Positions 24,388 to 53,166 of a stretch of DNA of 64,000 nt are shown one piece after another; within the stretch, counting starts at the first letter, position 1; every line of letters starts with the position of its first letter. Both the position numbers and the translations under genes were made by a program. This DNA is from Deltaproteobacteria bacterium UBA4427 (GTDB taxonomy: Bacteria; Myxococcota_A; UBA9160; UBA4427), in the NCBI GenBank assembly GCA_002390675.1, contig DGPZ01000195.1:67095-131094 (forward strand), written 5' to 3'. Under the pieces are notes generated by a model. That model saw nothing but the letters and a program-made list of their open reading frames with translations, was not told the DNA's origin and ran no database searches.

Positions 24388-24648
24388 TTACTCCCGCGCC
24401 TGTTCTTCGTTCACGCCGTGTTTACGGTCGAGTGCGGCCATACGGCGGGCATAGAAGAAGATCAGCGCGACAAATACGTAGATCGAGCCTTGTTGTGCGA
24501 AGAAAAAACCGAGCTGAAATCCACCGATCTGGATTTGGTTCAGCCAATCGAGGCCTATGATTCCGAAGCCGAAGGAGACGAGAAACCAGATCGCCAAACA
24601 AAAAGCGACGAGACGCAAATTGTCCTGCCAGTATGTGCGTTTGGACAT
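24388..24648 (-). CDS. DUF4212 small membrane protein (putative solute symporter small subunit)
   Basis: 86 aa with 2 TM helices. FWQDNLRLV...GFQLGFFFAQQGSIYVFVALIFFY is typical of DUF4212. There is a 4-nt gap to the symporter gene. Confidence 0.8.
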   Translation of the reverse strand: MSKRTYWQDNLRLVAFCLAIWFLVSFGFGIIGLDWLNQIQIGGFQLGFFFAQQGSIYVFVALIFFYARRMAALDRKHGVNEEQARE

Positions 24649-24793
24649 TGGCGAGTGCTCTCCTGATGAGGATTTCGGGAGGGAGTCCAGCGGATTACAG
24701 GCACGGAAGCAACCCTCGTGGCGTCTGCGGATTGGATTCGAAGGACTACACTCGAGTCTCCCTCGCTTCGAGAAATATACGGAGATTCGATCG

Positions 24794-25990
24794 ATGTCTG
24801 AGCTGCTCTCGTTTAATCCTTTCGCCTACGAGATGCATGAGGATCCCTATCCGACCTACGCGCGACTTCGCGAAGAAGCACCCTGCTACCACAATAAAGA
24901 GATGGGCTTCTGGGCTCTGTCGCGTTTCGACGACGTTCTTGAGGGGTACCGAGATTGGGAGAACTTCACTTCGACTCGCGGAATCGCTTTGGAGGAGGTT
25001 GGGCGCGGGAGCGCGCCGTCTATGATCGGGATGGATCCGCCGCGGCAAACGAAACTCCGCAAGCTCATCGTTAGTGCCTTCAATCCGAAGCGTGTCGGGG
25101 CACTTGAGCCGAGAGTGCGCGCGCTCACGACTGGCTTCCTTGACCAACTAGTCGAGGAAGGTGAATGCGATTTAATCGAGCGGTTCGCGGCACTCCTTCC
25201 CTCGGATGTGATTTCAACTTTGCTAGGCGTGCCGCAGGAAGATCACAGTTCACTTCGAATTTGGACCGAGACCATGATGCACCGCGAAGACGGCGTGTCG
25301 GCGATTCCGCCTGCCGCGAACGAAGCCTCGGGGAATCTTCTCCGCTACTTCGCAGGCCTTATCAAGGCGAAGCGAAAGCAACCGGCGGAGGATCTGGTCT
25401 CAGCACTCACCGGAGCGGAACTCGACGGGCGACGACTCGAGGACAGCGAGATCCTGGGCTTTTGTTTCCTGTTGATCTCCGGCGGGAACGAGACAACTGA
25501 AAAGCTGATTGCGAACACCATTCACCAGCTGTCGAGACATCCCGATCAGCGCTCGGAGATCATCTCGGACCCAAGCAAGATTCCCGGGGCGATCGAAGAG
25601 TCCCTTCGTTTTCGGAGCCCGACGCAATATATGGTTCGCGCAACGACCCGTGACGTCGAGCGGCACGGTTTGACGATTCCAGAAGGAGATCGCGTCTTAC
25701 TTTCAATTGGCGCTGCGAATCATGATCCCAGGCGTTTCGAGGACCCAGGCCGCTTCGATATCAATCGTGTGATGAGTCAGCACCTAGCCTTCGGTTTCGG
25801 CGTTCACTTTTGTTTGGGTGCTCGTCTCGCGCGGTTGGAAGCACGGGTCGCGATGGAAGAGATTCACAAGCGACTTCCGGACTACGAAGTTGATGAGTCA
25901 GGCGTGAGTGTTGTGCACGCGGGGAATGTCGCCGGGCTCGCCACGCTGCCTATCCGGTTCACCCCGAGCGGCCCGGTTGGCGAAGGTTGA
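24794..25990 (+). CDS. cytochrome P450
   Basis: Heme loop FGFGVHFCLGARLARLE, I-helix LLISGGNETT, and ExxR (EESLRF). The start was trimmed from 24557 to ATG 24794 (MSELLSFNPF). Confidence 0.9.
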   Translation: MSELLSFNPFAYEMHEDPYPTYARLREEAPCYHNKEMGFWALSRFDDVLEGYRDWENFTSTRGIALEEVGRGSAPSMIGMDPPRQTKLRKLIVSAFNPKRVGALEPRVRALTTGFLDQLVEEGECDLIERFAALLPSDVISTLLGVPQEDHSSLRIWTETMMHREDGVSAIPPAANEASGNLLRYFAGLIKAKRKQPAEDLVSALTGAELDGRRLEDSEILGFCFLLISGGNETTEKLIANTIHQLSRHPDQRSEIISDPSKIPGAIEESLRFRSPTQYMVRATTRDVERHGLTIPEGDRVLLSIGAANHDPRRFEDPGRFDINRVMSQHLAFGFGVHFCLGARLARLEARVAMEEIHKRLPDYEVDESGVSVVHAGNVAGLATLPIRFTPSGPVGEG

Positions 25991-26922
25991 GAAGTTTCGC
26001 GACTAACTCGATCTCTCCGGTCATGCACATGCTGCTTTCGCTGCGAGGGGATCCCGCTTTATAGACGAGCGCTGTCTCGACGATGTGGGTAGATGGGGAA
26101 GTCGCCATCGTGATGCCCAAACCCGACGCGATGATCGCTTTCAAACTCGCTCGTGGGCGTGCAGGTTCGCTCATGGCAATTCCACTCGGTGACTTGCTCG
26201 CCCATTTATTGCGGCGGATTCCGCTGAGGCAATGGAGGGGCCGGCTAAGCAGGCAAGGAGGAGGCCGAGCAACCGAAAAGAATGCAGGCGGATGATTGGA
26301 CTGCGACATACCCTCCTTTCGCTTTTCGTCGGCGATTTCGGACACGCGGTTCGAGTATCATTATTCCCTCCGGGGCTCCGCCGCAGGCTCCCTCGACTTC
26401 TAAACTATGGCGTCCTGACTACGTTTTTGAAGCCTTCTCATCCCGAGCGATTTGCCCCGGGGGATTCCGGTTCTTAAATTTATAAGCAAACAGCCGATAA
26501 TTTTCCCCCACGGACCGGGCTGTTCGTAGTAGGGTGATTGTGATCTGGGAAGGTCGCGCGCCGGGGCAGCAGCTTCGAGCGCACGGGAGGATATCGGCAA
26601 GGCAGGGCTCGTTCGAGCCAAATCATCCAAATCAAGTTTGAGAATCGCGGAGCGTTGGGAAGCGCTCTAGTCGCTGCAGTATTTCAGATTCGCAGCTGAG
26701 TCTGAATCGGTGCCAGCAAACACGAATTTCGAACACGGACTGCAAGATGCCTTGTGCATAGTTCGTTCTTGGATTGACGCCTTTTCCCTCTACCAGATCA
26801 GACAGTTGGCACGAATCGAGTGGACCACAAGTAGTGGTGACTCGGGAGTGCTGCGCCTCGCAATAGCGGTGGCGACGCTCGGCATTTTCGCTGTGGCACT
26901 ACTGAAGTAGAGGTAGATTAAA

Positions 26923-27630
26923 ATGATTCGATTCACCAAGGCCCTCGCGCTGGCCGCGACCCTCTTGGCCATACCGTCAATGGCATCCGCCCTAGGGATT
27001 GAACTGGTCGGCACAAATGGAAGTGGCGGTAGTGCTACTCTGGCCCCCGGCGGTACGATCACGTTCGACCTTCGCATGACCTTCACCGGAACGGAGCCCC
27101 AGATCTTCGGCCTCTCCGCCGACGTTACGGGTATGGACTTGGCGGACGCGACCGGCGTGCGCGACTTTGGCCTTCAACTTGCGGGCGGTACTTCCGTCAG
27201 TGAATCTCTTGGAACCGACCCGGCACCCGGAATTGTCCCCGTGCAAGGGGCGATCCAAAACAACAATGGTACGTCTCCAGTTGAACGATACAGCATTAAC
27301 CATCTCAGTCCGCAGGCCTATACAGTCAACATGTTCGACGGCATAACGGCCAGCGGCGCGGATGGCGACGGCTCCACCGACTACGGTATCGGTGGGACCT
27401 ACGTAACGGGTGGCGACATCCACTTTCAGGTCACGCTCCAAAACGTAGGTAACGGCTCCGCCGCTTCATCCCTCGCGAACCTGCAGTTCTCGCTTCTCGC
27501 TTTGGACTTCCAGGGCGGCACGATCGCCGCAACTGGTGACACCTTCGCGCTGACGGTCATCCCGGAGCCGGGCACCGCCCTGCTCATGGGTCTCGGTCTC
27601 GCTGGCCTGGCCACGGTTCGCCGACGCTAG
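26923..27630 (+). CDS. PEP-CTERM sorting-domain secreted protein
   Basis: N-terminal signal peptide. C terminus VIPEPGTALLMGLGLAGLATVRRR is a PEP motif plus TM plus basic tail. Confidence 0.85.
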   Translation: MIRFTKALALAATLLAIPSMASALGIELVGTNGSGGSATLAPGGTITFDLRMTFTGTEPQIFGLSADVTGMDLADATGVRDFGLQLAGGTSVSESLGTDPAPGIVPVQGAIQNNNGTSPVERYSINHLSPQAYTVNMFDGITASGADGDGSTDYGIGGTYVTGGDIHFQVTLQNVGNGSAASSLANLQFSLLALDFQGGTIAATGDTFALTVIPEPGTALLMGLGLAGLATVRRR

Positions 27631-27712
27631 ACCTGACTGGCACGGCAGACGGGCACGGGATCCATTTCGGCTTCTGTAACTGTAATAGAGCCCGAGCCCG
27701 TCAAAAAACGAA

Positions 27713-27742
27713 GGGCCGCTTTCTCGCAAGAGAAAGCGGCCC
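27713..27742. terminator. bidirectional intrinsic terminator hairpin
   Basis: GGGCCGCTTTCTC-GCAA-GAGAAAGCGGCCC forms a 13-bp perfect stem. It is followed by TTTCGCGTTT on the + strand and TTCGTTTTTT on the - strand. It lies between the convergent PEP-CTERM and UGSC genes. Confidence 0.75.
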
Positions 27743-27835
27743 TTTCGCGTTTGGGGCTTCGGGCAGTCCGGGGCGCTGCCACGGGAGTTCCGGGGCTGCT
27801 CAGGAATTTTGGTTTTGGGCGGGGGCGAGGGCGAA

Positions 27836-28363
27836 CTAACGCAGCTGTTCGAGGATCGCGTCCAATGCCGCGTCTGCCCATGAATCCAGGGTTGCGCCGG
27901 GTGTGCCGCCGATCGGGTGCGGGACGATGATTCGGCGCGCATCAGGAAAGAGTAGCTCCCTCGCCATCTGATCTGCGAGATCGCGAAAGGCTTCGCTCGC
28001 GACGACGACGGTGGCTACGCCTCGGGCTTCAAGGGATTTGGTGTCGTGGAGACTCCACGACGTGCAGCTCCCTCAATCCGCGGTACCCGTAAGGACGACC
28101 TCGACTTCTTTGGCGAGGCGATCGATTAGCTCGGTCTCACAGGGCGTGGCGGCGGTCTGCTTGCGGAAGCAGCCAACGTAAATTCCATCCGTCTTCTTGG
28201 CGAGCTCTACGCCCATCCTGCCTAATAGGTGATCCGCGCCTGCCTTCCCGTTGTCGAGGACGCCAATACGAAGACCTACGAGCTCTTTGATAGAGGTTCG
28301 CGGCGTGCATTCGAGGAGTGCGTCCGTATGTCCCTCGGGAGAGTAGATCAAGGTTGACGACAT
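27836..28363 (-). CDS. UGSC-motif selenoprotein candidate (175 aa, Sec at codon 97 encoded by in-frame TGA 28075..28073)
   Basis: Track ORF 28073..28489 stops at a TGA. Codon-by-codon translation shows the frame stays open 78 more codons to TAG 27838..27836. The context is VVLTGTAD-U-GSCTSWSLHD. A stem-loop lies 11 nt downstream, and a paralog at 49978..50541 has the TGA at the same aligned position. ATG 28363 (MSSTLIYSPEGH) is the preferred start. Confidence 0.8.
28043..28061 (-). promoter_or_regulatory. SECIS-like stem-loop downstream of UGA (locus 1)
   Basis: The mRNA reads UGA-GGGAGCUGCAC-GUCGUGGA-GUC-UCCACGAC: an 8-bp stem and a GU-containing apical loop, starting 11 nt after the UGA. 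Confidence 0.55.
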
Positions 28364-28431
28364 GCTTTGGTCTCTTTCTTCGCCCACGCGCCGGGTGCCG
28401 ATGCCCGGGACGGGGAGGATGTAGCGCCCTG

Positions 28432-29553
28432 TTAGGGCTCTAGGGGCAGAGTGGCGCTTTCGGTCATGCCCCAGCTCGGCATTACGCAAGAGTGTTTTCC
28501 AGCACCGCCTACAACCATCACTTTGATGAGGTCGCGATCGCGCATGATCGGCTTCATGCCGTCATCCGGGAGCGCATCTTCCCATTCAGCGTATTGAGTG
28601 ACTTCGAAGGCGCGCCGGAATCGCGACATGGGAAGCCGCGCGTGTTCGAAGAGAAAATCCTGCACGTCTTTTCGTGAAAAGCCGCCGGCTGCGATTGCCT
28701 CGGCGTGCTCGGGGCCGAGAAAGACGAACCATTCGGCACTCGAGACCGGAGCATTATTCGAGCCAAGGGTCAGCATCGTGCTCGCGATTTGCTCGAGCGT
28801 ATGAATCGGCGAGCGAACATCGTGATCCTGGACGTTATGCGGATTCTCACCGCAAGCGACGGTGACAGCGCTCGGCGCTCGAAGGCCAAGGCTTTCCGGA
28901 TAGCTTTCCCAGGGGCTCTCGGCGCAATTCTCGGCGGCGCAGTAGCTGTATTTCGAGGGCTGTCCTTGAGTGGCGGCATCGCCGGCTCCTGGGCGCGCGC
29001 CCGCGATGTTCATGAGGACGAGTCTAAGCGCTCGGCCGACGGAGGCATTCGCGCGACAGCCGGGGCCGAAGGCGCCTAGCCCGGCATTGAAGCCGAGCTC
29101 GTCCGTCGCGGCGCCATGAACCAGGATGAGCGGAGCCACCGGATGAGTCGTCGCGTTGATGCCGCGAAGATTGATTTCCGGGAAGGCGAGTCCGCGGACG
29201 GCGGTCGTGAGAACTGGGAGCATGTTGGGGCGACAGCCAGCCATTACGGCGTTGACTGCGAGGAGTCGTCGCGTGACGAGTCCGCCGCGGGGCGGCAGGA
29301 CTGCGACGACTGCATCAGGATCAATCTGCCGGGGCAGTTTTTCGAGGAAGGCTTCGACCCGAGCCTCGGTCGGAGGCACGAGGGGAAGGCCGTCCCCCCA
29401 GCCCCGTGTGTCGGCGAGATCCATCCACGCCTCGAAATCACCTTCGGGAATTTTAACGTCCGGCGAGACCCGCGCCGATTCGAAGGATTCGAGAGTCGCA
29501 CCCGGGAGGGCGCAAACGTCGTCCTCACATTCGATTTCGACCGAATCGGCCAT
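28432..29553 (-). CDS. uncharacterised conserved protein, partner of the UGSC gene (paralog of 50588..51589)
   Basis: 373 aa from ATG 29553 (AAGGAGA RBS; the track start is 29580). Shares the blocks WGDGLPLVPPT, AVMAGCRP and GPGCRANASVGRALRLV with the 333-aa protein at 50588..51589. I could not assign a domain. Confidence 0.8.
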   Translation of the reverse strand: MADSVEIECEDDVCALPGATLESFESARVSPDVKIPEGDFEAWMDLADTRGWGDGLPLVPPTEARVEAFLEKLPRQIDPDAVVAVLPPRGGLVTRRLLAVNAVMAGCRPNMLPVLTTAVRGLAFPEINLRGINATTHPVAPLILVHGAATDELGFNAGLGAFGPGCRANASVGRALRLVLMNIAGARPGAGDAATQGQPSKYSYCAAENCAESPWESYPESLGLRAPSAVTVACGENPHNVQDHDVRSPIHTLEQIASTMLTLGSNNAPVSSAEWFVFLGPEHAEAIAAGGFSRKDVQDFLFEHARLPMSRFRRAFEVTQYAEWEDALPDDGMKPIMRDRDLIKVMVVGGAGKHSCVMPSWGMTESATLPLEP

Positions 29554-29585
29554 GCCATCTCCTTGGTCGACTATGTGCATGCGGA

Positions 29586-29605
29586 CCGACGTGCATGCAC
29601 GTCGG
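29586..29605. promoter_or_regulatory. perfect 20-bp palindrome CCGACGTGCATGCACGTCGG upstream of the UGSC-partner gene
   Basis: Read directly from the sequence. It lies 33-52 nt upstream of ATG 29553. An extra GTGCATGC copy sits at 29574..29581. Confidence 0.5.
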
Positions 29606-29677
29606 CGCGACTGCCTAACATTTTACAACTGTGCGTCCTCAGTTGAGGCATCGCCCCTAGAAAAGAGGAGAGAAATC

Positions 29678-30883
29678 TCAGTCGAGTGTGCGGAACGCGT
29701 TCGTGTGGGTGTCCTTCGGAAACTCGTCGGGCGCGAGCGGCACGCTCAGTTCGTCCCAAGTCGGTCCGCACTTGTCCGAGATTGGCTTGAGGGCTTCGAG
29801 ATCGAAGTCATAGAGCTTGGCGGCATTTAGCCCGAGCATCGCTCGCGTATCGTCCTCGCCGCAGGTGTTGAACGTGTGCCGCAACGCCAAGCGCGTATCG
29901 GGGTAGGTGCCTTCGTAGTGGGGATAATCGCTGCCCCAGAGAATACGCTCTGTGCCGATCACGTCGCGATCCTTGAGCTCCGGCGGGGACGCCGAACTCG
30001 CGCCGTAGTAGCAGTTCTGCTTTGCGTAGAAGCTCGGCGGCTCGGGCGTCGTGACACCCTCAGCGAATTGGAACTCGCCGACCGCGCCTGAAGAGATGCG
30101 CTTCCAGGCCATGTCGAGGCGCTGCAGGGTTTCCGGTACCCAGGCGCACCCGGACTCGGTGATGATGTACTTGAGCTTCGGGAAGCGGTGGAAGACGCCG
30201 GACAGAAGTAACTGGCTATAGCTTCGGGTTGAGAAGAAGCCGGTTTCGATCAGCCGAATCGGAAGGGAGACGGGAAGGCGTCCGTAGTCTGGGGAGCCTG
30301 TGCCGCCGTGGTGATTCACGACGAGGCCCGTCTCTTCGAGAAGCGCCCACATAGGGTCGTAGTCCGGGTGATAGAGCGGCTTGATGTAGCCCGTGCAGTC
30401 GTCGGGAACGTGCGGGAGCAGGACACCGCCGCGCAAGTTGTTCTTGGCGATCCACTCGATGTCTTTAATCGCTTCGTCGATGTCGTTCAGATAGACGAGG
30501 CCGATGCCGGCGCGCTGGGCTGGAAATTCGCCGCACCATTCGCTGAGCCATCTGTTATGCGCGCGAATACCTTCGAGGCGCATCAAATAGTCTTCGGGGC
30601 GAGGGTTGCCGCAGATGAGCACGCTCGAGCGGAAGAAGGGCGGAACAGTATTCGGAAAGACGATCTCGCCGACGACGCCTTCTGTCTGCATGTCGCTCAT
30701 GCGCTCGGCATCGTCCCAGTTCTTGTGCTTCTTGGATCCGATGTGCTTCTTCTGCGGGTTCTTGTACGAACCTCGCCACTCGTCGAAGAGCGCCTGGTGT
30801 TTGGTGTCGAGGTATTCGCGGTAGCCCGCGACGGAGTTGCCGGCGTGGGTGTCGGAGGAAATGACGATGATCGGATCGCTCAT
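29678..30883 (-). CDS. amidohydrolase-2 family metal-dependent hydrolase/decarboxylase
   Basis: MSDPIIVISSDTHAG provides the HxH-type metal motif region, followed by WGSDYPHYEG. The start was trimmed from 31060 to ATG 30883. Confidence 0.85.
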   Translation of the reverse strand: MSDPIIVISSDTHAGNSVAGYREYLDTKHQALFDEWRGSYKNPQKKHIGSKKHKNWDDAERMSDMQTEGVVGEIVFPNTVPPFFRSSVLICGNPRPEDYLMRLEGIRAHNRWLSEWCGEFPAQRAGIGLVYLNDIDEAIKDIEWIAKNNLRGGVLLPHVPDDCTGYIKPLYHPDYDPMWALLEETGLVVNHHGGTGSPDYGRLPVSLPIRLIETGFFSTRSYSQLLLSGVFHRFPKLKYIITESGCAWVPETLQRLDMAWKRISSGAVGEFQFAEGVTTPEPPSFYAKQNCYYGASSASPPELKDRDVIGTERILWGSDYPHYEGTYPDTRLALRHTFNTCGEDDTRAMLGLNAAKLYDFDLEALKPISDKCGPTWDELSVPLAPDEFPKDTHTNAFRTLD

Positions 30884-31198
30884 GAAATGCCTTTCGTTTC
30901 GTATGGAGGCGCTTGCGGGTGAGTTCGAAGAGTTCCTTCGAATGATGGCGGGTGCTCTCGGATGCACCCGACACACCGGCGTTTGGGATGGCCCTGCCGG
31001 GGCTGATCCGCAATCGGCTCGGCCGATTGTGTCAAATTCAGAGCATTTAGTCAGCTCCAATCATGTCATTCGCAGGAGAGAAAAATGCGCCATTTGGAGT
31101 CCTTCGCGAAGCGATTCTCTAGGCTGGCGCGATCGCTCTGGGCCAGCGAACCTACGCTCCAGCTGACCCTCTTCTCAATCCCAAAAGGACCCGACAAA

Positions 31199-31645
31199 AT
31201 GGCCACTTTCGCCGAAGTACCTTGGATCGCAAAGCACATCGAGCTCTATCGCACAGACCCGGAGAAGGCGCATATGTGGGATTCGGCGGAGGCCGGGGGC
31301 GAGGGAATGCTGCCCACGCTTCTGATCACGACGACTGGACGAAAGAGTGGCGAGCCAAGGTCGATTCCATTGATCTACAAAGCGATCGACGGCAATTACG
31401 TGATCATCGCCTCGAAGGGGGGCATGCCGAACCACCCGATCTGGTTCCTAAACCTCGAAGCGAATCCCGCTTGCGAATTGATGGTTGGGGCGAAGCCCGT
31501 CTCTGCTCGTGCGCGGATCGCCGAGGGCGACGAGCGCGAACGACTTTGGGCAGAACTCCAAGAAATCTATCCGCCCTACGCGGCTTACAAGGTGAGCGCG
31601 GGGGATCGGGTGATTCCCGTCGTGGTCCTCGAGCCTGTCGAATAG
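31199..31645 (+). CDS. nitroreductase-family deazaflavin-dependent oxidoreductase (DUF385-like)
   Basis: 148 aa. TTGRKSGEPRSIPLIY...ASKGGMPNHPIWFLNLEANP is typical of the DUF385/PNPOx-like split barrel. The start was trimmed to ATG 31199. Confidence 0.75.
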   Translation: MATFAEVPWIAKHIELYRTDPEKAHMWDSAEAGGEGMLPTLLITTTGRKSGEPRSIPLIYKAIDGNYVIIASKGGMPNHPIWFLNLEANPACELMVGAKPVSARARIAEGDERERLWAELQEIYPPYAAYKVSAGDRVIPVVVLEPVE

Positions 31646-31699
31646 CAGCCTAACAGGTACGCGGTTGCCGAGCACCACGCTCGTACCGTCCCTTTACTG

Positions 31700-32626
31700 C
31701 TAAGAGAACGCGTCGGACGCGGCTGTGAGTCCGAGAAATGCAACCGTGTCTTCGATTGCATTTCCGGCATCGCAGCCCGCGACGCGCCTGAAATTTCGTG
31801 CGCCTTCGGACGGAGGACATGCGTCGCGCGCGTGCTGGACGCCGAGGTTGTCCCATATAACCAAGTCGCCCACTTCCCATTGGTGGACGTATTCGTTCTC
31901 AGGGACATACAAATATTCGTCGAAGATTCTCGTGAGCATCGCCCGACTTTTCGGATCGCCGCGCTCTTCGTCCGAGAGTTCCATGATGCGTTCTGTCTGT
32001 TGCAGCGTACACACAAGAGTCTTGTAGTCGCGGCGCTTCGGGTGTGAGCGAACCATTGGCCAGATGTGGCTTTGCGTTGGCGCCGCCGGATCCGTTCGGC
32101 CTTCGAAGGCCGGGCGAGCGTCGGGTTTCATGGCGGCCAGATCATGGGCGCAAAAGATCGTGTAGGCCTCGATCTGGGCCCTGAGTGCCCGCGGCATTAT
32201 TTTGAGAGGCCGCGCGTTGTCATAGAAACGCGTCGTCGTTCCATTCTGTGGGACGTCGACAGCGAAGAGCGAAATCACGTCTGCCGGAAAGGGCGTGTAG
32301 GTGTAGTCCATATGCGGCGTGAGAGGGCCCTCGCGGTAGCCCTCGGTCATGCTGTCGACCCCGTGGCCATCTTGATTAGACACGAAGGAATGCTGATCCC
32401 CGGGGAGGCGCTCTTCGATCACCTTCGCAAAACCCTCGACGAATGCGACCTGGGCTTCCGTGGTGAGTGCATTTTGATCCCCGAAGACGAGGATCGGATG
32501 TTGTTGCCACGCAGCCTCGATCTGTGTGTCGACTTGCTTCTCGAGGCTGCCCGCCAGCTCTGAGGCCAGATCAATGCCATGTATTCGAGCGGCGATGCCG
32601 TTCGTGAGGGGCTCTATCTCGATCAT
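31700..32626 (-). CDS. TauD/TfdA-family Fe(II)/2-oxoglutarate dioxygenase
   Basis: 308 aa. HMDYTYTPFPADVISLFAVDVPQNGTTTRF and IWDNLGVQHAR. Confidence 0.8.
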   Translation of the reverse strand: MIEIEPLTNGIAARIHGIDLASELAGSLEKQVDTQIEAAWQQHPILVFGDQNALTTEAQVAFVEGFAKVIEERLPGDQHSFVSNQDGHGVDSMTEGYREGPLTPHMDYTYTPFPADVISLFAVDVPQNGTTTRFYDNARPLKIMPRALRAQIEAYTIFCAHDLAAMKPDARPAFEGRTDPAAPTQSHIWPMVRSHPKRRDYKTLVCTLQQTERIMELSDEERGDPKSRAMLTRIFDEYLYVPENEYVHQWEVGDLVIWDNLGVQHARDACPPSEGARNFRRVAGCDAGNAIEDTVAFLGLTAASDAFS

Positions 32627-32651
32627 TCCGTTTCCCTCTCACTCGACCCTG

Positions 32652-33989
32652 TTAGGCAGGTCCGCCAGTTATTTCGCTGGGCTCGATTCCTAAGTAGTGC
32701 TCGAGATTTCTGTGAGTATTCACGACACGCGCTTCTTCGCAGGACAAGCTGATATGTGTGAGGCCCGGCTGGTTTACGCCGCGCTGCGCATTTTTAAGAA
32801 TATCGACGTCCTGGTTGAGCACGAAGCCAAAGCCAGCTTGATCCGCAGGCATATCGAGATCGAAGGGTCTCGCCCTCGGAACATCTTTGATCTCTCTCTC
32901 GAAACTCATCCCGATCAACTCCGAAGTGTCAGCGGTCGCGCCGGGGCGTGCGGATAACACTTGGAGTAGGTCTGCGGAGATGAGGACCGTGAGGTTCGGG
33001 AAGATGTTGTATTGATGGAGGAGCAACATCTCATGATTGCTAAAGCCCGAGAGATCGATTCCCTTCTCATCCTTTTGGTAGGCGCGAATTCGTTCGCCGA
33101 TCACGTCGACCATGGTCTCGCCTTCGGCGGGCATAGGCGCCGGGCAACTTTCCGTAATCCCCATTCTCTCACCCTGGGTGACGATGAACGAGTCCCAGAT
33201 CAGTTGATTGTCACTCTTAATGAGACGTGGGCTGGCAACGCCGTAGAGCTGTCGAGAGACGCCGGTACGGCCCCATATTTCCTGCCCGGAGTTGATGTCA
33301 TCAATCGATCCGAGCATTTCGCGATGCAAGGTCTGGACGTGGTAGGTCTCAGAAAAACTGTCGGCGACGAGTTTCCAATTGGCCGGCATCTCAGTTCGAA
33401 TCTTTGCATAACAACGAAAGTCATCGACTTTGAGAGCCTTTGCATCTTGCGGAACCACCTCTAGGAACTCGGAGAGGGTCATCGCTTCGGGATCGAGGTT
33501 CACGAAAACGATCGGTCCCCAGGTGTCGACTTGGACGGGGGTGAGGCCGAGCTCGGATTTGTCGACGTTCTCGCCAAGGCCCTTATGTGAGGGCATCCCT
33601 GTGAGCTGACCCCGTAAATCGTACATCCAGCCGTGATAGGGACATCGGAGATGTTTGAGTCCCTGAGCCGACCCGCTGCAGAGAGCGATTCCGCGGTGTT
33701 TGCAGGCGTTTTGGAACGCGCGTAGCTCTCCGTCGCGGCCCCGGACGACGAGCACTGAGTAGCGGCCTATCCGCACTTCGTAGAGATCGCCGGGCGCAGC
33801 GACATGGTCGATACTGCACGCGACGATCCACGCTTTCTGCCACACATGCTCGTGTTCGCGTTCGGCGAAGGCTTCGCTGCGATAGCGGTCCGCGGGAATT
33901 CGAAAGGGGGTTCCCTGTGAATTTCCGACTGAGCTAATTGCGGTTCCGAGAAGATCTTCCCGGGTACCACCGACATCGGCCAGGCTCAT
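32652..33989 (-). CDS. aromatic ring-hydroxylating (Rieske 2Fe-2S) oxygenase, alpha subunit
   Basis: Rieske motif CKHRGIALC...CPYHGW. The C-terminal catalytic domain carries SETYHVQTLH. Confidence 0.9.
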   Translation of the reverse strand: MSLADVGGTREDLLGTAISSVGNSQGTPFRIPADRYRSEAFAEREHEHVWQKAWIVACSIDHVAAPGDLYEVRIGRYSVLVVRGRDGELRAFQNACKHRGIALCSGSAQGLKHLRCPYHGWMYDLRGQLTGMPSHKGLGENVDKSELGLTPVQVDTWGPIVFVNLDPEAMTLSEFLEVVPQDAKALKVDDFRCYAKIRTEMPANWKLVADSFSETYHVQTLHREMLGSIDDINSGQEIWGRTGVSRQLYGVASPRLIKSDNQLIWDSFIVTQGERMGITESCPAPMPAEGETMVDVIGERIRAYQKDEKGIDLSGFSNHEMLLLHQYNIFPNLTVLISADLLQVLSARPGATADTSELIGMSFEREIKDVPRARPFDLDMPADQAGFGFVLNQDVDILKNAQRGVNQPGLTHISLSCEEARVVNTHRNLEHYLGIEPSEITGGPA

Positions 33990-34052
33990 GGCATTTCCTT
34001 TGCTGCTTGGGGCTGGATTTTGTTAGGGGGTCGCGTGTGGGCGAGCCCAGCC

Positions 34053-34799
34053 TTAGGTCGTGACGTTGCCGCCATTCAGCTGCAGCGTTTGGCCAGTCAT
34101 CCACTTGGCTTCATCTGAGGCGAGGTAGACGACAAGGGCCGCGATGTCTTCGGGTTGTCCGAGTGCACCGACGGGAACTGTCTTCGCCATATGGGCCGTG
34201 ATTTCGGGCTCGGAATGATTGTCGATGAGGCCGATCGCAATCGTATTCGCAGTGACGCCCGTCTTTGCGACTTCCATCGCAAGATGGCGCATGAAGGCGA
34301 TGCCGCCGCCCTTGCCTGCGCCATAGGCGGAGATGCCAAGAGGAATGCCAACTGTTCCAGCACCGGAGGAAATCGTTATGATTCGCCCCTTGCCGCGGTT
34401 GCACATCCCGTCGACAACGGCATGCACGCAGTTCATCACGCCGTAGGTGTTAAGGTCGATGAAGGGGCGCCAGTCTGCGGGCTTTGTGTCACGAAATTGT
34501 GTCACGCCCATGTCGGGCGGCACGCCTGCGTTATTGACTAAAATATCGAGTGGGCCGAGGGTCGCTTCGGCACGGGCGATTCCTGCGACAGTCGCTTCAT
34601 AATCACAGACATCGAAAGCGGCTGTGACGGCTTTGCCGCCGGCCGCCTCGATTGCGGCGACGGTTTCTGCTGCACGCTCCTCGCGAAGATCATTGATTGC
34701 CACACTCGCACCGAGATCTGCGAGTGCGCGAGCGATTCCTGCTCCAACGCCTTGGCCGGCGCCCGTAATCAGGGCCGATCGGCCCGTGAGATCGAACAT
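34053..34799 (-). CDS. SDR-family oxidoreductase (FabG-like)
   Basis: TGAGQGVGAG, NNAG, and YGAGKGGGIAFMRHLA. Confidence 0.9.
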   Translation of the reverse strand: MFDLTGRSALITGAGQGVGAGIARALADLGASVAINDLREERAAETVAAIEAAGGKAVTAAFDVCDYEATVAGIARAEATLGPLDILVNNAGVPPDMGVTQFRDTKPADWRPFIDLNTYGVMNCVHAVVDGMCNRGKGRIITISSGAGTVGIPLGISAYGAGKGGGIAFMRHLAMEVAKTGVTANTIAIGLIDNHSEPEITAHMAKTVPVGALGQPEDIAALVVYLASDEAKWMTGQTLQLNGGNVTT

Positions 34800-34940
34800 G
34801 TCATGCCTCCTAGTCTAGAGTCTAAACGCTAACCAATTGCTCGGGCGTCCGCGTCGGCCACGGCAGAGTCCGTTGGGCGATCGCGAACACTCATTTCGAC
34901 TCGCGTTTGCGCAATGCGGGTGAGGTAAGGAACGGAAACG

Positions 34941-35804
34941 ATGCGAATCGGAATCTCGCTACCCGTACGAGAGCTTGCGAATGACCTCGGGGCGATCCGA
35001 GAATTTGCGGAGGCCGCGGACGACCTGGGGCTCGCGCATCTCCGCGTGCCGGATCTCGTGATGCGGCCAAAGAGTGGCCATTTGCATGAGCCGATGACGT
35101 TGCTTTCTTGGGTTGCGGGATTCACGAAACAGATCGAGCTTGTTCCTTCAGTGATTGTCCTGCCATCGCGTCAGACGCCACTCTTTGCGAAGCAGGCGGC
35201 GGAGCTCGACTTGCTCTCCGGTGGGCGTGTTCGAATCGGTGTAGGGGTCGGAGGGAGTCGTGAGGAATATCAGGTCCAGGGCCACGACTATCATCAGCGA
35301 GGCGCACGATGTGATGAACAGATCGACCTCTTACGGGCGCTTTGGACGGAAGAGGCGCCGATATTCGAAGGCCGCTTCGATTCCGTCTCGGGTTTCGGTC
35401 TCGATCCGCTCCCGATCCAGCGCCCCATTCCGATTTGGGTCGGCGGGGGCTCGGGCTTCATGAAGGAGCGCTCGAAGGACGCTTTGCTGCGTCGAATAGG
35501 GGAACGCTCGGATGGATGGTTCGCGGTTGTTCCGATTGAATCGACCTTCGCGATGCGAGAAAAAATTGAAGGCTATGCCCGCGCTATTAATCGCGATCCC
35601 GACGTCATTGGGATGGAAGGCGGCTGCGGCATGGCTGGGAAGTCGACGAAAGAGTGGTTGGGGCGGCTGCGCGATTGGGAATCTGCCGGCGCCTCCCATC
35701 TTTGTCTGCGCACCCTGGGCGGGGCGCTTTCCGCTCGCGAACAGCTCGATCTGATGCAGGACGCACATAGGACACTGGGTCTCGAAGGGATTCGCTGCAC
35801 CTGA
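34941..35804 (+). CDS. LLM-class F420/flavin-dependent oxidoreductase
   Basis: 287 aa. Luciferase-like pattern (RVRIGVGVGGSREEY, PIWVGGGS). Confidence 0.8.
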   Translation: MRIGISLPVRELANDLGAIREFAEAADDLGLAHLRVPDLVMRPKSGHLHEPMTLLSWVAGFTKQIELVPSVIVLPSRQTPLFAKQAAELDLLSGGRVRIGVGVGGSREEYQVQGHDYHQRGARCDEQIDLLRALWTEEAPIFEGRFDSVSGFGLDPLPIQRPIPIWVGGGSGFMKERSKDALLRRIGERSDGWFAVVPIESTFAMREKIEGYARAINRDPDVIGMEGGCGMAGKSTKEWLGRLRDWESAGASHLCLRTLGGALSAREQLDLMQDAHRTLGLEGIRCT

Positions 35805-35860
35805 GGGCGAACTTCTGGAGATGGATCCTGCGCGCGCGCGGGTGTATACCTGAAGAACTC

Positions 35861-35885
35861 GGCCGCACGATTTTCTAGTGCGGCC
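35861..35885 (+). terminator. stem-loop between the LLM and SDR genes (possible terminator/attenuator)
   Basis: GGCCGCAC-(9 nt)-GTGCGGCC forms an 8-bp stem. It is followed by TCTCT and then the RBS AGGAGG of the next gene. The U-tract is weak. Confidence 0.35.
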
Positions 35886-35904
35886 TCTCTAGGAGGACGG
35901 ATGA

Positions 35905-36756
35905 ATGGGTCGATGTGAAGGCAAGGTGGCTCTAGTTACGGGCGCGAGCCGCGGAATTGGAAAAGCAATCGCACAGCGGTTGGTTTCAGAAGGGGCTTCG
36001 GTCATCGTAAACGCTTCGCGAATGGGCGCGCACGGGCCACTGCCCGGAACGCTTGAAGCAGTCGCTGCAGATATTCAGGCGGCAGGGGGCGGGGCCGCAG
36101 CGATCGCATGTGATCTCGCAGACCCGGTGGCGCGTGAAGGGTTAGTTGAGCGCGCGAGCGAATTTTTCGGACCGATCGACATCCTCGTGAATAACGCCGC
36201 CTCAGGGATCATGAAACTCCCGAGTCAAACGACGAACGCCGACCGCTCCTTCATGTTCGAGCTGAATGTGAATGCCCCGGTCGACCTGGCACAGCAATGC
36301 ATTCCCGCCATGAAAGAAAACGGCGGGGGGTGGATTCTGAATATCGGCAGCGCGACGTCGTCGCAGCCTGAAATCCCGTACCGCGATTCGAAGATGTCTG
36401 CCTGGGTCATCGGCGCGTACGGTGCGACGAAAGCTGCGCTCGATCGCTACACGGAAGCCCTGGCGCACGAAGTCCAGGAGCACGAAATCTTCGTGAATTG
36501 CATGATGCCCACTTCAATCGTACTCACGAGCGGCGCCGACTATGTGAGAGATATCGCACGCAAAAACCCCGATTGGGTCGAGCCGGTCGAGATGATGGCG
36601 GAGGGAGCGCTGGAACTCTGTAGCGGTCGCCACGTGGGACGCGTGATCGCGAGTCGCGACATCGTTCATTATGCGGCTCGCAAAGTTCATAGCCTCGACG
36701 GCAAGGAAGTGCTGGGAGACGCGTTCTTGGCTGCGGATGTCGAATCGACTGCGTGA
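35905..36756 (+). CDS. SDR-family oxidoreductase
   Basis: TGASRGIGKA, NNAA, and YGATKAALDRY. Confidence 0.85.
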   Translation: MGRCEGKVALVTGASRGIGKAIAQRLVSEGASVIVNASRMGAHGPLPGTLEAVAADIQAAGGGAAAIACDLADPVAREGLVERASEFFGPIDILVNNAASGIMKLPSQTTNADRSFMFELNVNAPVDLAQQCIPAMKENGGGWILNIGSATSSQPEIPYRDSKMSAWVIGAYGATKAALDRYTEALAHEVQEHEIFVNCMMPTSIVLTSGADYVRDIARKNPDWVEPVEMMAEGALELCSGRHVGRVIASRDIVHYAARKVHSLDGKEVLGDAFLAADVESTA

Positions 36757-47638: not shown

Positions 47639-48559
47639 TTAGAACCCGCTTGTCGGTTCGTCGGGGTTAAGCGCGGCTCCGAGTGCCGCGTTGTAGATCT
47701 GGAAGGAGAGACCCGCTGTACGTGGATCAAGGGGGGGGGCGCCATGATAGGCGCCCGGGCAGTTGTAGAGCTCGACAGGGATGCCCGCGGCAAGCAGCTT
47801 TAAGCCGTACTCGATCCCTTCGTCTCGAAGCGGATCGAGACCGTTCGTCTGGATGAAGGCCGGGGGGAGATCCTCAAAGTTTTCCGCCCTCGCCGGGGCT
47901 GCATAGGGCGAAGTTGAGGACCGATCGTAGTCCTCTCCGAGATAGTGAAGCCACATCCCTACCGCGGCCACGGAATTGAAGCCCGGCGTGTCCGCACCGG
48001 ATTGGGCCATGGAAGGCGTCTCCATGCGGTCGTCGGTCACCGGGATAAGAAGCGCTTGGTAGGCGATTTTGGGGCCCCCGCGATCGCGCACCATCATGGC
48101 GAGTGCGGCGGTGAGGGCACCTCCGGCACTGCCCCCGGTGACGACCAGGCGGTTTAGGTCGATGCCTAGTTCATCCGCGTTCTTCCCGACCCATTGCAGA
48201 GCGGCATAACAATCGTCCGGTGCCGCGGGGAAGGGATGTTCTGGTGCCAATCGATAGTCGACGGAAACGACGACGCAGCCATGGCCCAGAGCCCAGTTGG
48301 CTTCCATGCCAGCAAAGGACTCGGGGTGCATGATGCAGAACGCGCCGCCGTGAATGTGGAACAGGATCGGTAGTCGTCCTTCTAGGGCGCGAGGTCGATA
48401 GACTACGACGCGGACGTCGGGCTCGCCCGTAGGGCCGGGGACGAAACGTTCGCCGATCTCGAGCTCGGAGTGGTGCCTATCCGTTAGCTCGAGGCCAGGC
48501 ATAGGCTCTTCGGGCAAGTTGCGGTCGGGAATCGGGAGCAGTTCATGGGCGCGGGACAT
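47639..48559 (-). CDS. alpha/beta hydrolase, hormone-sensitive-lipase-like esterase
   Basis: Oxyanion HGGAF and nucleophile elbow GGSAGG. Confidence 0.9.
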   Translation of the reverse strand: MSRAHELLPIPDRNLPEEPMPGLELTDRHHSELEIGERFVPGPTGEPDVRVVVYRPRALEGRLPILFHIHGGAFCIMHPESFAGMEANWALGHGCVVVSVDYRLAPEHPFPAAPDDCYAALQWVGKNADELGIDLNRLVVTGGSAGGALTAALAMMVRDRGGPKIAYQALLIPVTDDRMETPSMAQSGADTPGFNSVAAVGMWLHYLGEDYDRSSTSPYAAPARAENFEDLPPAFIQTNGLDPLRDEGIEYGLKLLAAGIPVELYNCPGAYHGAPPLDPRTAGLSFQIYNAALGAALNPDEPTSGF

Positions 48560-48879
48560 GTTTGTACCTCCGGCTCGATCCTATCACGCTTACGCGATCT
48601 TCTTCCGGGAGAGATCGAGAGAGTTGCCAGCAATTATAATCATCTCTTTGAATAACCGACGCTCTTCTACGTGGTTGTCTTGATGATTGCTGTGCTCGGC
48701 GAAGCTGATTCGCTCTTTGTTACCTGCGCATCGGCATTCACGCCTTTACGGATCACTCATTCCTGTGTGCAAGCGACCGGCGATATCGTGATGGTGTGCT
48801 TTTCACTATTGTTTGCGAGCTGGCTTGCGCTCGCGACCATGGTTGTGCGCGCGCGTGCGAGCCTTCTAGCTCGATGCGC

Positions 48880-49677
48880 CTAACGGCACGAGTACCCGCC
48901 GTCGACCGGAAGCGTGTGTCCCGTGATGAAGGACGCGGCATCGCTCGATAGGAATACCGCTGCCGTTGCGATTTCATCCGCTTGGCCGAGACGGCCCATC
49001 GGATGGAGCTGCTCGTATTCGTGCTGGACCTGCAGATCCTCGCGCAACAATGAGGTCATAGGCGTTTCGATATAGCCGGGGGCGACGGCGTTTACGCGAA
49101 CGCCAAGCTTGGCGTACGAAATCGCGAACTGAGCTGTCATGCCGACGACAGCATGCTTTGACGCGATATAAGCGATGCCCCCGCCTTCGGTCATAGAAGC
49201 GGGGCCCCCTTCGGAATGGTCGGAAAGAGGTGAGACGAGGCCTTGCAGGCCGGCGATCGAGGCGGTGTTGACGATCGCGCCTCCGCCACGCTCCGCCAAG
49301 AGAGTCGCTCCGTGCTTGAGGCCGTAGTAGACGCCGTTCTGGTTGACTTCGATGGTCTGTTGATAGTCGTCGCCGCCGACGCCCGCATTATTGAAGAGGA
49401 TGTCGAACCCACCGAGGGCGTCGATGGTTTGTATGAGGCTTTTTTCGACCGCGCTTTCGTCGGTCACGTCGAGTCCTAGGGAAGCGGCGTTCCCGCCGTC
49501 GGCAAGGATCGACTCGCTTGTTTGTTTCGCGCCGTCGGCGTCGATGTCCGCGCACATGACGCGGGCTCCGGCTTCGGCATAACGGCGCGCGGCCGCACGG
49601 CCAATACCGGAGGCCGCTCCTGTGACGAGGGCGACGCGGTCGGTGAGATCTATGGTCGGAGATGGGATTGGCATCAT
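48880..49677 (-). CDS. SDR-family oxidoreductase
   Basis: TGAASGIGRA, NNAG, and YIASKHAVVGMT. The start overlaps the NifU-like gene's stop by 4 nt. Confidence 0.9.
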   Translation of the reverse strand: MMPIPSPTIDLTDRVALVTGAASGIGRAAARRYAEAGARVMCADIDADGAKQTSESILADGGNAASLGLDVTDESAVEKSLIQTIDALGGFDILFNNAGVGGDDYQQTIEVNQNGVYYGLKHGATLLAERGGGAIVNTASIAGLQGLVSPLSDHSEGGPASMTEGGGIAYIASKHAVVGMTAQFAISYAKLGVRVNAVAPGYIETPMTSLLREDLQVQHEYEQLHPMGRLGQADEIATAAVFLSSDAASFITGHTLPVDGGYSCR

Positions 49678-49919
49678 GATTCCTTTTCAGTTTCGACTTC
49701 GACGCGCAATACGTCGTCGCTCAGTCCTTTGAGCATGTCATGCATCATGGCGCCGAGTGCTTCCGGCTCCATCACGCACTCCGCGCATTCTTCGTTCACT
49801 CCAGGTCGATAGCTCACGCGCAGCACACCGCCGTCGAATTCGCAGAGACGAACCTGTCCGCCATCGGGTTTAACGATCTCGTTGAATTGCTCGACAACTT
49901 GTTGCACGGCTTCTGACAT
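49674..49919 (-). CDS. NifU-like (C-terminal-domain type) CxxC protein
   Basis: 81 aa. The layout ...PDGGQVRLCEFDGGVLRVSYRPGVNEECAECVMEPEALGAMMHDML resembles the Nfu/NifU C-domain with its CxxC. Confidence 0.65.
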   Translation of the reverse strand: MSEAVQQVVEQFNEIVKPDGGQVRLCEFDGGVLRVSYRPGVNEECAECVMEPEALGAMMHDMLKGLSDDVLRVEVETEKES

Positions 49920-49977
49920 GGCTCTTCCTATATTTTATTTCGAGCTCGGAGCAATGGTAGACGGAGTTTCTGGAGGT

Positions 49978-50541
49978 TCAGCTCGTCAGACGGGCACGCA
50001 CTTTGGGAGCAACCTCTCGTGCCAGATCGCGAATTTCATCTTGATTCCAGATGGCTGTCGGAATGGCCGGGTAGTCGATCAGGATGAACTCAAAATCAGG
50101 CACTCCCGATAGTCGAGCCATCGCTTGGGCAGAGCCCTCGACGGCTTTGTGGATGATGGCGGCGGTCGGAATACCCGCCCACTCGAGCTCGATCGCGTCG
50201 CGCAAACTGCGCGCAGAGCAGCTGCCTCAACCCCCGAAGCCGGCGATTGCCAGCGAGGTCTCCGAGGTGAGCCGAGCCCAATCCGGTCCCTCTGGCGCGA
50301 CGGAGACACTCGGCTTCAGCACACGCACCGCGGCGAGGGTGTCGTCTGCGCTCGTGAGCTCCCCGTACACGGCGTCGAGGAAGGACTTGGATTCACCGAG
50401 TCCATTGGCCACGAGGCCGAGTACATGCCCCGAAAGCGAAGCGACGCGGGCGGGAAGCGCCCGGTCGTCTTTGCGCTCGAGGGGGCCGCTCGTAGGATCG
50501 AGGGCGATCAGTGTTTTTTCGTCCATGGCTAATTCCTTCAT
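49978..50541 (-). CDS. UGSC-motif selenoprotein candidate, second copy (in-frame TGA 50229..50227)
   Basis: Track ORFs 50227..50541 and 49978..50205 are the same frame separated only by a TGA. Joined, they read ...SLAIAGFGG-U-GSCSARSLRDAIELEW... A stem-loop lies 13 nt after the UGA. ATG 50526 (AAGGAA RBS) may be the true start. Confidence 0.8.
50199..50213 (-). promoter_or_regulatory. SECIS-like stem-loop downstream of UGA (locus 2)
   Basis: The mRNA reads UGA-GGCAGCUGCUCUG-CGCGCA-GUU-UGCGCG: a 6-bp GC-rich stem and a GU-containing triloop. Confidence 0.5.
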
Positions 50542-50587
50542 GAAGTTGACGGAAATATTGGCTTTCCGGCGACGGCTAATGTGCGTA

Positions 50588-51589: not shown

Positions 51590-51678
51590 AGGCCCTCCAT
51601 GAATGACCTTTCCACAAAATGGCGAAGCTGACCAGCGCTACCGGATTGGGAGTCGCGGTATGACTTCAGAGGATACCC

Positions 51679-53130: not shown

Positions 53131-53166
53131 TACGTAGACTCATTCGCGAAAAGGCCAGATCTCTCG

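Follow-up and report, generated by a model that had tools for sequence, protein, structure and literature searches.

UGSC is a selenoprotein family described by Zhang and Gladyshev (2007/2008); the literature reports it as a protein of unknown function with a “likely thioredoxin-fold” that is abundant in Global Ocean Sampling (GOS) samples. The closest described systems that combine a selenoprotein with a second subunit are the protein B components of glycine and proline reductases (GrdB+GrdE, GrdF+GrdG, GrdH+GrdI, and PrdB+PrdA), in which a selenoprotein with a UxxC motif (U denotes selenocysteine, Sec) is joined by a larger substrate-binding subunit, paralogous versions serve different substrates, and re-reduction occurs via thioredoxin or a dedicated electron-transfer system. 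We analyzed a 64,000-nucleotide (nt) stretch of DNA (the window) from Deltaproteobacteria bacterium UBA4427 (GenBank assembly GCA_002390675.1; contig DGPZ01000195.1, positions 67,095 to 131,094 of the forward strand). The window contains two UGSC genes (U1 and U2), each with a gene for a larger protein directly upstream (A1 and A2; hereafter, the partner). Our censuses indicate that UGSC is almost never found without this one specific, equally uncharacterized protein of about 340 amino acids (aa). Like protein B, the resulting two-gene module comprises a UxxC selenoprotein and a larger subunit, which would be substrate-binding here too; it occurs in paralogous versions, which would serve different substrates, and its re-reduction would likewise run via thioredoxin.

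The four genes of the two pairs are encoded on the minus strand of the window (Table 1), with intergenic gaps of 68 nt (A1-U1) and 46 nt (A2-U2). A1 and A2 align with 35% identity over 279 aa (E = 5e-48), which identifies them as paralogs. An alternative upstream start codon of A1 (ATG at 29580) would give a product of 382 aa; a database protein with 99% identity to A1 (P0121) is 373 aa long. A1 scores 548 bits against a hidden Markov model (HMM) of the partner family. The original prediction, made from the letters of the window, had placed two homologous genes directly upstream of the UGSC genes on the same strand; both genes proved to be real, the two gap lengths it gave were exact, and the three sequence blocks it quoted were found in A1 and A2, where they are among the most conserved columns of the family.

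Both selenoprotein genes matched the Pfam UGSC family (PF24696), U1 at 131.6 bits and U2 at 131.1 bits against a cut-off of 25, and in both an in-frame TGA occupies the first position of the U/C-G-S-C motif. Sec, encoded by an in-frame TGA, or Cys at this position is also the feature expected of the published UGSC family. With NCBIfam NF041046, U1 scored 121.3 bits and U2 scored 86.3 bits; both scores are under the equivalog cut-off of 125, so U1 and U2 are members of the UGSC family that diverge from the NCBIfam seed. The 60 nt from the U1 UGA, which contain a candidate bacterial selenocysteine insertion sequence (SECIS) hairpin, fold at −24.5 kcal/mol (z = −3.1), and 1 of 200 shuffled sequences was equally stable. 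Folding of the 60 nt after the U2 UGA was no better than that of shuffled sequences, and no tRNA-Sec was found within the window. The closest database proteins come from metagenome-assembled genomes of marine Myxococcota.

For a census seeded with the partner, 80 loci in species-representative genomes were scanned in six frames with HMMs that read through TGA. These loci span Dehalococcoidia and other Chloroflexota, Acidimicrobiia, Rokubacteria, Binatia, Poribacteria, Alpha-, Beta-, and Gammaproteobacteria, and Myxococcota, and they include the cultured Sheuella amnicola. A UGSC gene on the same strand and within 600 nt of the partner was present at 60 of the 80 loci, downstream of the partner at 52 and upstream at 8. 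At the remaining 20 loci, UGSC was located elsewhere within 6 kb (6 loci), no UGSC was found within 6 kb (12 loci), or the sequence was too short to judge (2 loci). Four of the partners without UGSC within 6 kb are from Poribacteria (L019, L020, L054, and L056); these orphans belong to a shorter variant of 315 aa whose match to the family profile ends at about position 285. The other partners without UGSC within 6 kb are at L008, L024, L029, L045, L048, L061, L071, and L077.

The reciprocal census was blind to the partner: metagenome contigs were searched with a degenerate DNA pattern for [G/A]-D-U-G-[S/T]-C plus the next residues. All but one of the 120 loci with this pattern hold a full-scoring UGSC gene, the exception being L197, which gave short, weak matches only. 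Some loci hold two UGSC genes, and the tally therefore refers to 124 UGSC copies. An adjacent partner on the same strand accompanies 90 copies, lying upstream of 66 and downstream of 24; for 4 others a partner is nearby but not adjacent, and for 25 the contig breaks off on the relevant side. Among the informative metagenome loci, 90 of 95 have an adjacent partner and 1 clearly has none. This sole Sec-type UGSC without a partner (L096:2586-3083, minus strand) has more than 2.5 kb visible on each flank. Thus, pairing is very nearly always observed from the UGSC side and in about 80-85% of cases from the partner side. The claim that the partner always precedes UGSC is correct for the window, whereas in general either order occurs; the neighborhood census that had been proposed as a check shows the pairing in both directions. 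Over about 180 homologous loci, the Sec/Cys column is TGA in most and Cys (CGSC) in a few.

The two genes also diverge together. Across 117 adjacent pairs, the pairwise identity matrices of partner and UGSC are correlated with r = 0.82, a value reached by none of 500 permutations, and the nearest relatives of A2 and of U2 are at the same two loci (L001 and L002), from other phyla. Because the distance matrices correlate and A2 and U2 share their nearest loci, the two genes of the module are inherited, duplicated, and transferred together; several copies of the module often occur in one genome or at one locus. A conserved third gene was not found beside it, either by clustering all open reading frames (ORFs) of the 80 genome loci or among the 250 ORFs that immediately flank the module at 200 loci, which fell into 210 clusters, 185 of them singletons. 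The largest clusters, with six members each, are family III coenzyme A (CoA)-transferases and thiolases. The other flanking groups include short-chain dehydrogenases/reductases (SDRs), components of major facilitator superfamily (MFS), ATP-binding cassette (ABC), and tripartite tricarboxylate (TTT) transport, luciferase-like oxygenases, amidases, acyl-CoA ligases, enoyl-CoA hydratases, and P450s. Amidohydrolase_2, NifU, SDR, and P450 were each considered as a conserved third component, and ORF clustering over about 200 loci showed them to be lineage-specific only. Since no third gene is conserved, the pair is self-sufficient apart from general reductants; the module is self-contained and set in changing catabolic contexts.

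Partner and UGSC also occur as natural fusions, in both orders. UGSC-partner fusions with a Cys-type UGSC are represented by P0252, P0263, and P0366; P0247 and P0251 have the same order and are called from just after the Sec codon, and the partner-UGSC fusions P0248 and P0281 end exactly at the Sec position. In a further fusion, P0260, the partner is joined to a genuine low-Mr thioredoxin reductase domain (FCAVCDAPLF, with the motif CAVCDA), and on its contigs a Sec-type UGSC gene lies directly upstream and ends where P0260 starts. The two loci with this arrangement (L207 and L208) are flanked by genes for acyl-CoA dehydrogenase, acyl-CoA ligase, and NAD-dependent epimerase/SDR proteins. Five proteins of about 710 aa (P0242, P0244, P0271, P0278, and P0291) are probable partner-partner tandems, as judged from two or three matched stretches and the lack of any Pfam domain, and at some loci two or three partner copies stand beside one UGSC; tandem or multi-copy loci include L005, L132:2466-4500, L178, and L198. 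The tandem proteins and the multiple partners per UGSC suggest homo- or hetero-oligomers of the partner that share one selenoprotein.

A structural model of the natural fusion P0263 had a mean predicted local distance difference test (pLDDT) score of 86 and a predicted TM-score (pTM) of 0.88, despite a disordered linker at residues 186-198. We estimate that two domains of 175 and 360 residues, each folded with confidence but placed independently of the other, would yield a pTM of about 0.6; because the observed value exceeds this estimate, the model implies a defined interface between partner and UGSC. When the model was compared with the PDB, only its UGSC domain was matched, and nothing resembled the whole complex. 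Together with the two-way censuses, the fusions in both orders, and the co-divergence, this packed fusion model strongly supports the earlier proposal of a dedicated, duplicated two-gene module.

Searches of A1 and A2 against Pfam, NCBIfam, and the sequences in the PDB returned no match, and 17 diverse partners compared with Pfam at E = 10 gave nothing consistent, in line with the original statement that the partner cannot be assigned to any known domain. Word-indexed searches identified 7893 homologs with A2 and 3781 with A1, every one of them named “hypothetical.” A profile search of 1.84 billion representative sequences found 7071 clusters at 50% identity with E ≤ 1e-3, of which 1957 had E ≤ 1e-30. 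The partner thus represents a family of about 7,000 clusters that has neither a Pfam or NCBIfam model nor a close PDB structure. The N-terminus of A1-type partners is extended by a stretch containing the semi-conserved motif C-x-D-D-x-C-x-L-P-G, which A2-type partners lack.

Conservation was read over about 385 partner sequences, and residue numbers follow the family profile. Three blocks stand out: GWxDGLPxxPPT (G30, W31, D33, G34, L35, and P36, followed by P40 and T41); NAVxAGC (N78, A79, V80, A82, G83, and C84); and GPGxRANAxxGRAxRL (G140, G142, R144, N146, A147, G150, R151, A152, R154, and L155). Other conserved positions are D169, C182, E185, W192, H260, G326, G327, and G329. Residues R151, E185, G83, and G150 are essentially invariant. 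Cys84 is conserved at 97-98% and Cys182 at 91-95%; there is no third conserved Cys column, and no TGA was found at any Cys column of any member. The near-invariant set of polar and Cys residues (Cys84, Arg151, Glu185, Asn146, and His260) looks like an active site.

In the P0263 model, the UGSC domain (residues about 40-185) forms a (beta-alpha)5 unit in which the redox motif opens a helix. In the PDB it matches the flavin mononucleotide (FMN) domain of flavorubredoxin, WrbA, MsuE, and NQO1, with target-normalized TM-scores of 0.4 to 0.5, and UGSC is therefore predicted to be flavodoxin-like. This prediction contradicts the thioredoxin fold assumed for UGSC in PMC2398784. In an alignment of 16 diverse UGSC sequences, the second Cys of U-G-S-C is invariant, giving a UxxC motif. 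Around Sec, UGSC can be aligned weakly with GrdB and PrdB, although it is much shorter than GrdB: U1 aligned with PrdB at E = 0.018 (14.5 bits; cut-off 300) and with GrdH at E = 0.12, and among the 16 sequences, 3 matched TIGR01917 (GrdB), 2 matched TIGR01918, and 2 matched GrdF, the best at E = 0.0014. Alignment of the UGSC profile with a GrdB read from GOS by hhalign (E = 0.018) placed Sec on Sec and Cys on Cys and included an E-x-x-G-I-x-T strand. All UGSC matches to the selenoprotein B families (PF07355, TIGR01917, TIGR01918, and TIGR04483) were below threshold, and a sequence search of the PDB with the UGSC profile returned no PrdB or GrdB chain; one UGSC member had a weak match to LeuD. 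Because individually weak signals agree, we read UGSC as plausibly a distant relative, in shortened form, of the part of selenoprotein B that bears Sec, rather than a member of that family.

Our best explanation, which we hold tentatively and credit with slightly less than an even chance, is that partner and UGSC are the two subunits of one predicted cytoplasmic, Sec-dependent oxidoreductase (a reductase) that is fed by the thioredoxin system and would be the aerobic analogue of Stickland protein B. In this scheme the partner would bind the substrate, determine specificity, and supply most of the active site (R151, E185, N146, H260, and C84); it is assigned this role because it is the component that has branched into thousands of subfamilies and, within genomes, into paralogs. 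UGSC would dock rigidly on the partner and bring its selenol into a shared active site, where the selenol would attack the bound substrate or an adduct on partner Cys84. The Cys of UxxC would then resolve the intermediate, giving a selenenylsulfide to be re-reduced with NAD(P)H through thioredoxin reductase and thioredoxin. The data establish the obligate linkage, the natural fusions, the joint divergence, the site of Sec recoding, and the joining of the partner to thioredoxin reductase, whereas we infer the substrate-binding role of the partner, the position of Sec at the interface, the direction of electron flow, and the reductive nature of the reaction. Gene contexts suggest that aerobic heterotrophs use the pair to break down small organic acids, amides, and CoA thioesters.

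Several observations weigh against this explanation. The similarity of UGSC to GrdB and PrdB is far under the family thresholds, and no similarity could be detected between the partner and the pyruvoyl proproteins GrdE and PrdA; 17 diverse partners had no match to a Grd or Prd Pfam family (including Gly_reductase) even at E = 10, and A1 and A2 had no such NCBIfam match. Because the partner is not detectably related to GrdE or PrdA, the module is not a member of the Grd/Prd systems. In addition, about 15% of the partners in genomes have no UGSC within 6 kb, so the partner may also work with other reductants. Of about 150 UGSC-linked partners, 5 have A, G, or S in place of Cys84, and about 10% of UGSC-linked partners (13 of about 130) have V or L in place of Cys182; neither residue can therefore be absolutely required, and no correlation was found between the loss of Cys84 and the loss of UGSC or Sec. 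Among the 150 best representatives, the fusion to thioredoxin reductase is seen in one cluster only, and the P0263 model was built on an alignment of only 17 fusion sequences. The analogy to glycine and proline reductases drawn at the outset accordingly stands in part: it gains from the weak GrdB, GrdF, GrdH, and PrdB matches, the Sec-on-Sec alignment, and the thioredoxin reductase fusion. GrdA, GrdC/D, and PrdC/D/E were not among the conserved neighbors at about 200 loci, a statement that comes from ORF clustering and not from a search by name.

The strongest rival to the two-subunit reductase, which we nevertheless regard as unlikely, is that UGSC serves as a relay only. The partner would then be a complete thiol enzyme that cycles through Cys84, with Cys182 as the resolving residue where present, and UGSC would be its private thioredoxin-like carrier. 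The thioredoxin reductase fusion resembles the logic of AhpF/AhpC or NTRC, in which a reductase is dedicated to one client; P0260 has the same architecture with UGSC encoded directly upstream. Orphan partners (about 15%) also fit a relay, as does the retention of both conserved Cys residues, Cys182 included, by all 24 partners without a nearby UGSC, set against the loss of Cys182 from 13 of about 130 UGSC-linked partners (a difference that is not significant). That only UGSC-linked partners have lost Cys182 hints, again without significance, that Sec can replace a resolving Cys. Compared with the AhpF and NTRC systems, the client here has neither a peroxiredoxin nor a thioredoxin fold, the fusion is rare, and most modules have no reductase gene nearby. 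Against a relay, a generic carrier would not need co-divergence at r = 0.82 or a rigid-body fusion, nor would one expect Sec in nearly all UGSC copies and CGSC in only a few. Finally, UGSC resembles the substrate-attacking selenoprotein B rather than thioredoxin, judging by its weak sequence matches and its predicted flavodoxin-like fold.

Chaperones and their clients, too, are typically encoded strictly side by side or fused, and PrdH-type maturation factors are known in the proline reductase system from PMC11229817, a paper that describes no experimental Prd structure. The partner could accordingly help to assemble, mature, or protect UGSC, or UGSC the partner, for example as a chaperone that shields the selenol, rather than be an enzyme subunit. 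We consider this very improbable: the partner is twice the size of UGSC, carries an active site-like set of Arg, Glu, Asn, His, and Cys residues, has expanded into paralogs and tandem copies, stands without UGSC at about 15% of loci, and also accompanies CGSC-type UGSC.

The fold of the partner raises a third alternative. An AlphaFold2 model of A2 (pLDDT 83; pTM 0.86) had as its best Foldseek matches in the PDB the class I fumarate hydratases of Leishmania (E = 5e-4; probability 0.72), followed by weaker, low-TM matches to cyanuric acid hydrolase and YjgF. Class I (Fe-S) fumarate hydratase and tartrate dehydratase share a two-domain or two-subunit organization, and the partner could correspond to their large domain and UGSC to their small subunit, with a cluster held at the interface by a partner Cys and by the Sec and Cys of UGSC. 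A NifU-like gene that follows U2 and its orthologs and the weak match of one UGSC to LeuD would fit such an Fe-S hydro-lyase. The fold match, however, has a TM-score of only 0.26 and a root-mean-square deviation of 16 Å, and we rejected the partner as a fumarate hydratase relative, given an hhalign probability of 0.2% against Escherichia coli FumA and no Pfam match to Fumerase or Fumerase_C at E = 10; as modeled, the partner of about 340 aa is without a close PDB relative. Class I fumarate hydratase has a three-Cys [4Fe-4S] motif, whereas the partner has only two conserved Cys columns, of which Cys182 is dispensable. Moreover, 200 other loci lack the NifU-like gene, the fusion to thioredoxin reductase points to dithiol chemistry, and UGSC is modeled as flavodoxin-like and not as a swivelling beta/beta/alpha domain. 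An Fe-S hydro-lyase thus has little to recommend it, and we place it among the least probable readings. Chance or purely syntenic adjacency without functional coupling, for which one could cite the frequency of both families in the same kinds of genomes, is refuted by the fusions in either gene order, the adjacency found from UGSC-seeded loci, the co-divergence, and the persistence of the pair across Chloroflexota, Actinomycetota, Myxococcota, Proteobacteria, Binatia, Rokubacteria, and others while other neighbors change, and we assign it practically no weight.

The function of the module appears to be undescribed, as had been suggested: a review from 2026 still lists UGSC as uncharacterized. 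Published accounts present UGSC as a stand-alone protein, and a near-obligate partner gene, a thioredoxin reductase fusion, and co-divergence are not described in the literature that we searched. The link was partly foreshadowed in 2008 by the report of a “UGSC/Unknown_1” fusion, in which UGSC is joined to an unnamed conserved Cys-containing domain (PMC2398784); this agrees with the fusions described here, and Unknown_1 may be the present partner. What appears to be new relative to the searched literature is how general the module is, how large the partner family is, how the module connects to thioredoxin reductase, and the flavodoxin-like and selenoprotein B-like nature of UGSC. The hosts of Grd and Prd are Stickland fermenters, whereas the hosts and contexts of the module are aerobic, oxygenase-rich heterotrophs, which suggests that chemistry of the selenoprotein B type extends beyond anaerobic Stickland fermenters. 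A bolder version of the two-subunit reductase, which we consider doubtful, is that the pair represents an unrecognized class of selenium-dependent reductive bond-cleaving enzymes, an aerobic and broadly radiated counterpart of the Stickland glycine and proline reductases. By analogy to PrdA and GrdE, the partner in such a class would be a substrate subunit of new fold, possibly a proenzyme activated at the NAVMAG-C Cys. If this were true, the thousands of subfamilies would each be specialized for a small organic substrate of their own as SAR202-type Chloroflexota, Binatia, marine Myxococcota, and others break down dissolved organic matter, and the rank of UGSC among the most abundant selenoproteins of natural waters would be accounted for.

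Table 1. Coordinates of features in the window and of the thioredoxin reductase fusion loci on other contigs
Feature	Coordinates	Strand	Remarks
P450	24557..25990		
Secreted 235-aa protein with PEP-CTERM-type C-terminus	26923..27630	plus	Adjoins U1
UGSC selenoprotein gene U1	27836..28363	minus	175 aa; motif ADUGSC; Sec codon TGA at 28073..28075 (codon 97)
Candidate bacterial SECIS hairpin	28031..28074	minus	Directly 3' of the U1 UGA
Partner gene A1	28432..29553	minus	ORF; 373 aa from ATG at 29553
N-terminal extension of A1	29480..29553		Semi-conserved Cys motif
Amidohydro_2	29678..31060		Upstream of A1
F420H2-dependent quinone-reductase-like protein	31085..31645		
TauD-family dioxygenase	31700..32626		
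Rieske oxygenase alpha subunit	32652..33989		
Alpha/beta hydrolase	47639..48559		
SDR gene	48880..49677		
NifU-like ORF	49674..49919	minus	81 aa; CxxC; directly after U2
UGSC selenoprotein gene U2	49978..50541	minus	187 aa; motif GGUGSC; Sec codon TGA at 50227..50229 (codon 105)
Partner gene A2	50588..51589	minus	333 aa; paralog of A1
Bicupin	51679..53130		Weak match to dimethylsulfoniopropionate (DMSP) lyase
Sulfotransferase	53167..54066		
Sec-UGSC, then partner-thioredoxin reductase fusion	L207:4660-7313; L208:487-3140		Sec-UGSC as two ORFs (99 and 78 aa)

The P450, Rieske oxygenase, and TauD genes confirm the oxygenase-rich setting noted from the sequence of the window, and the regions 24557..36756 and 47639..54066 are densely packed with oxidative and catabolic genes. 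The NifU-like ORF behind U2 matches Pfam NifU at E = 8e-6, just below the gathering score, and its stop codon and the start of the SDR gene share 4 nt. The ORF is kept after the A2-type module in related TARA/Myxococcota contigs (L204-L206) and absent from 200 other loci of the partner/UGSC census; it is possibly a lineage-specific accessory of the A2-type module, outside the general module. A gene for a PEP-CTERM-domain protein also follows the A1-type module at L201-L203, so that this adjacency is kept among close relatives, and in one database protein (P0187) an A1-type partner is fused to Amidohydro_2.

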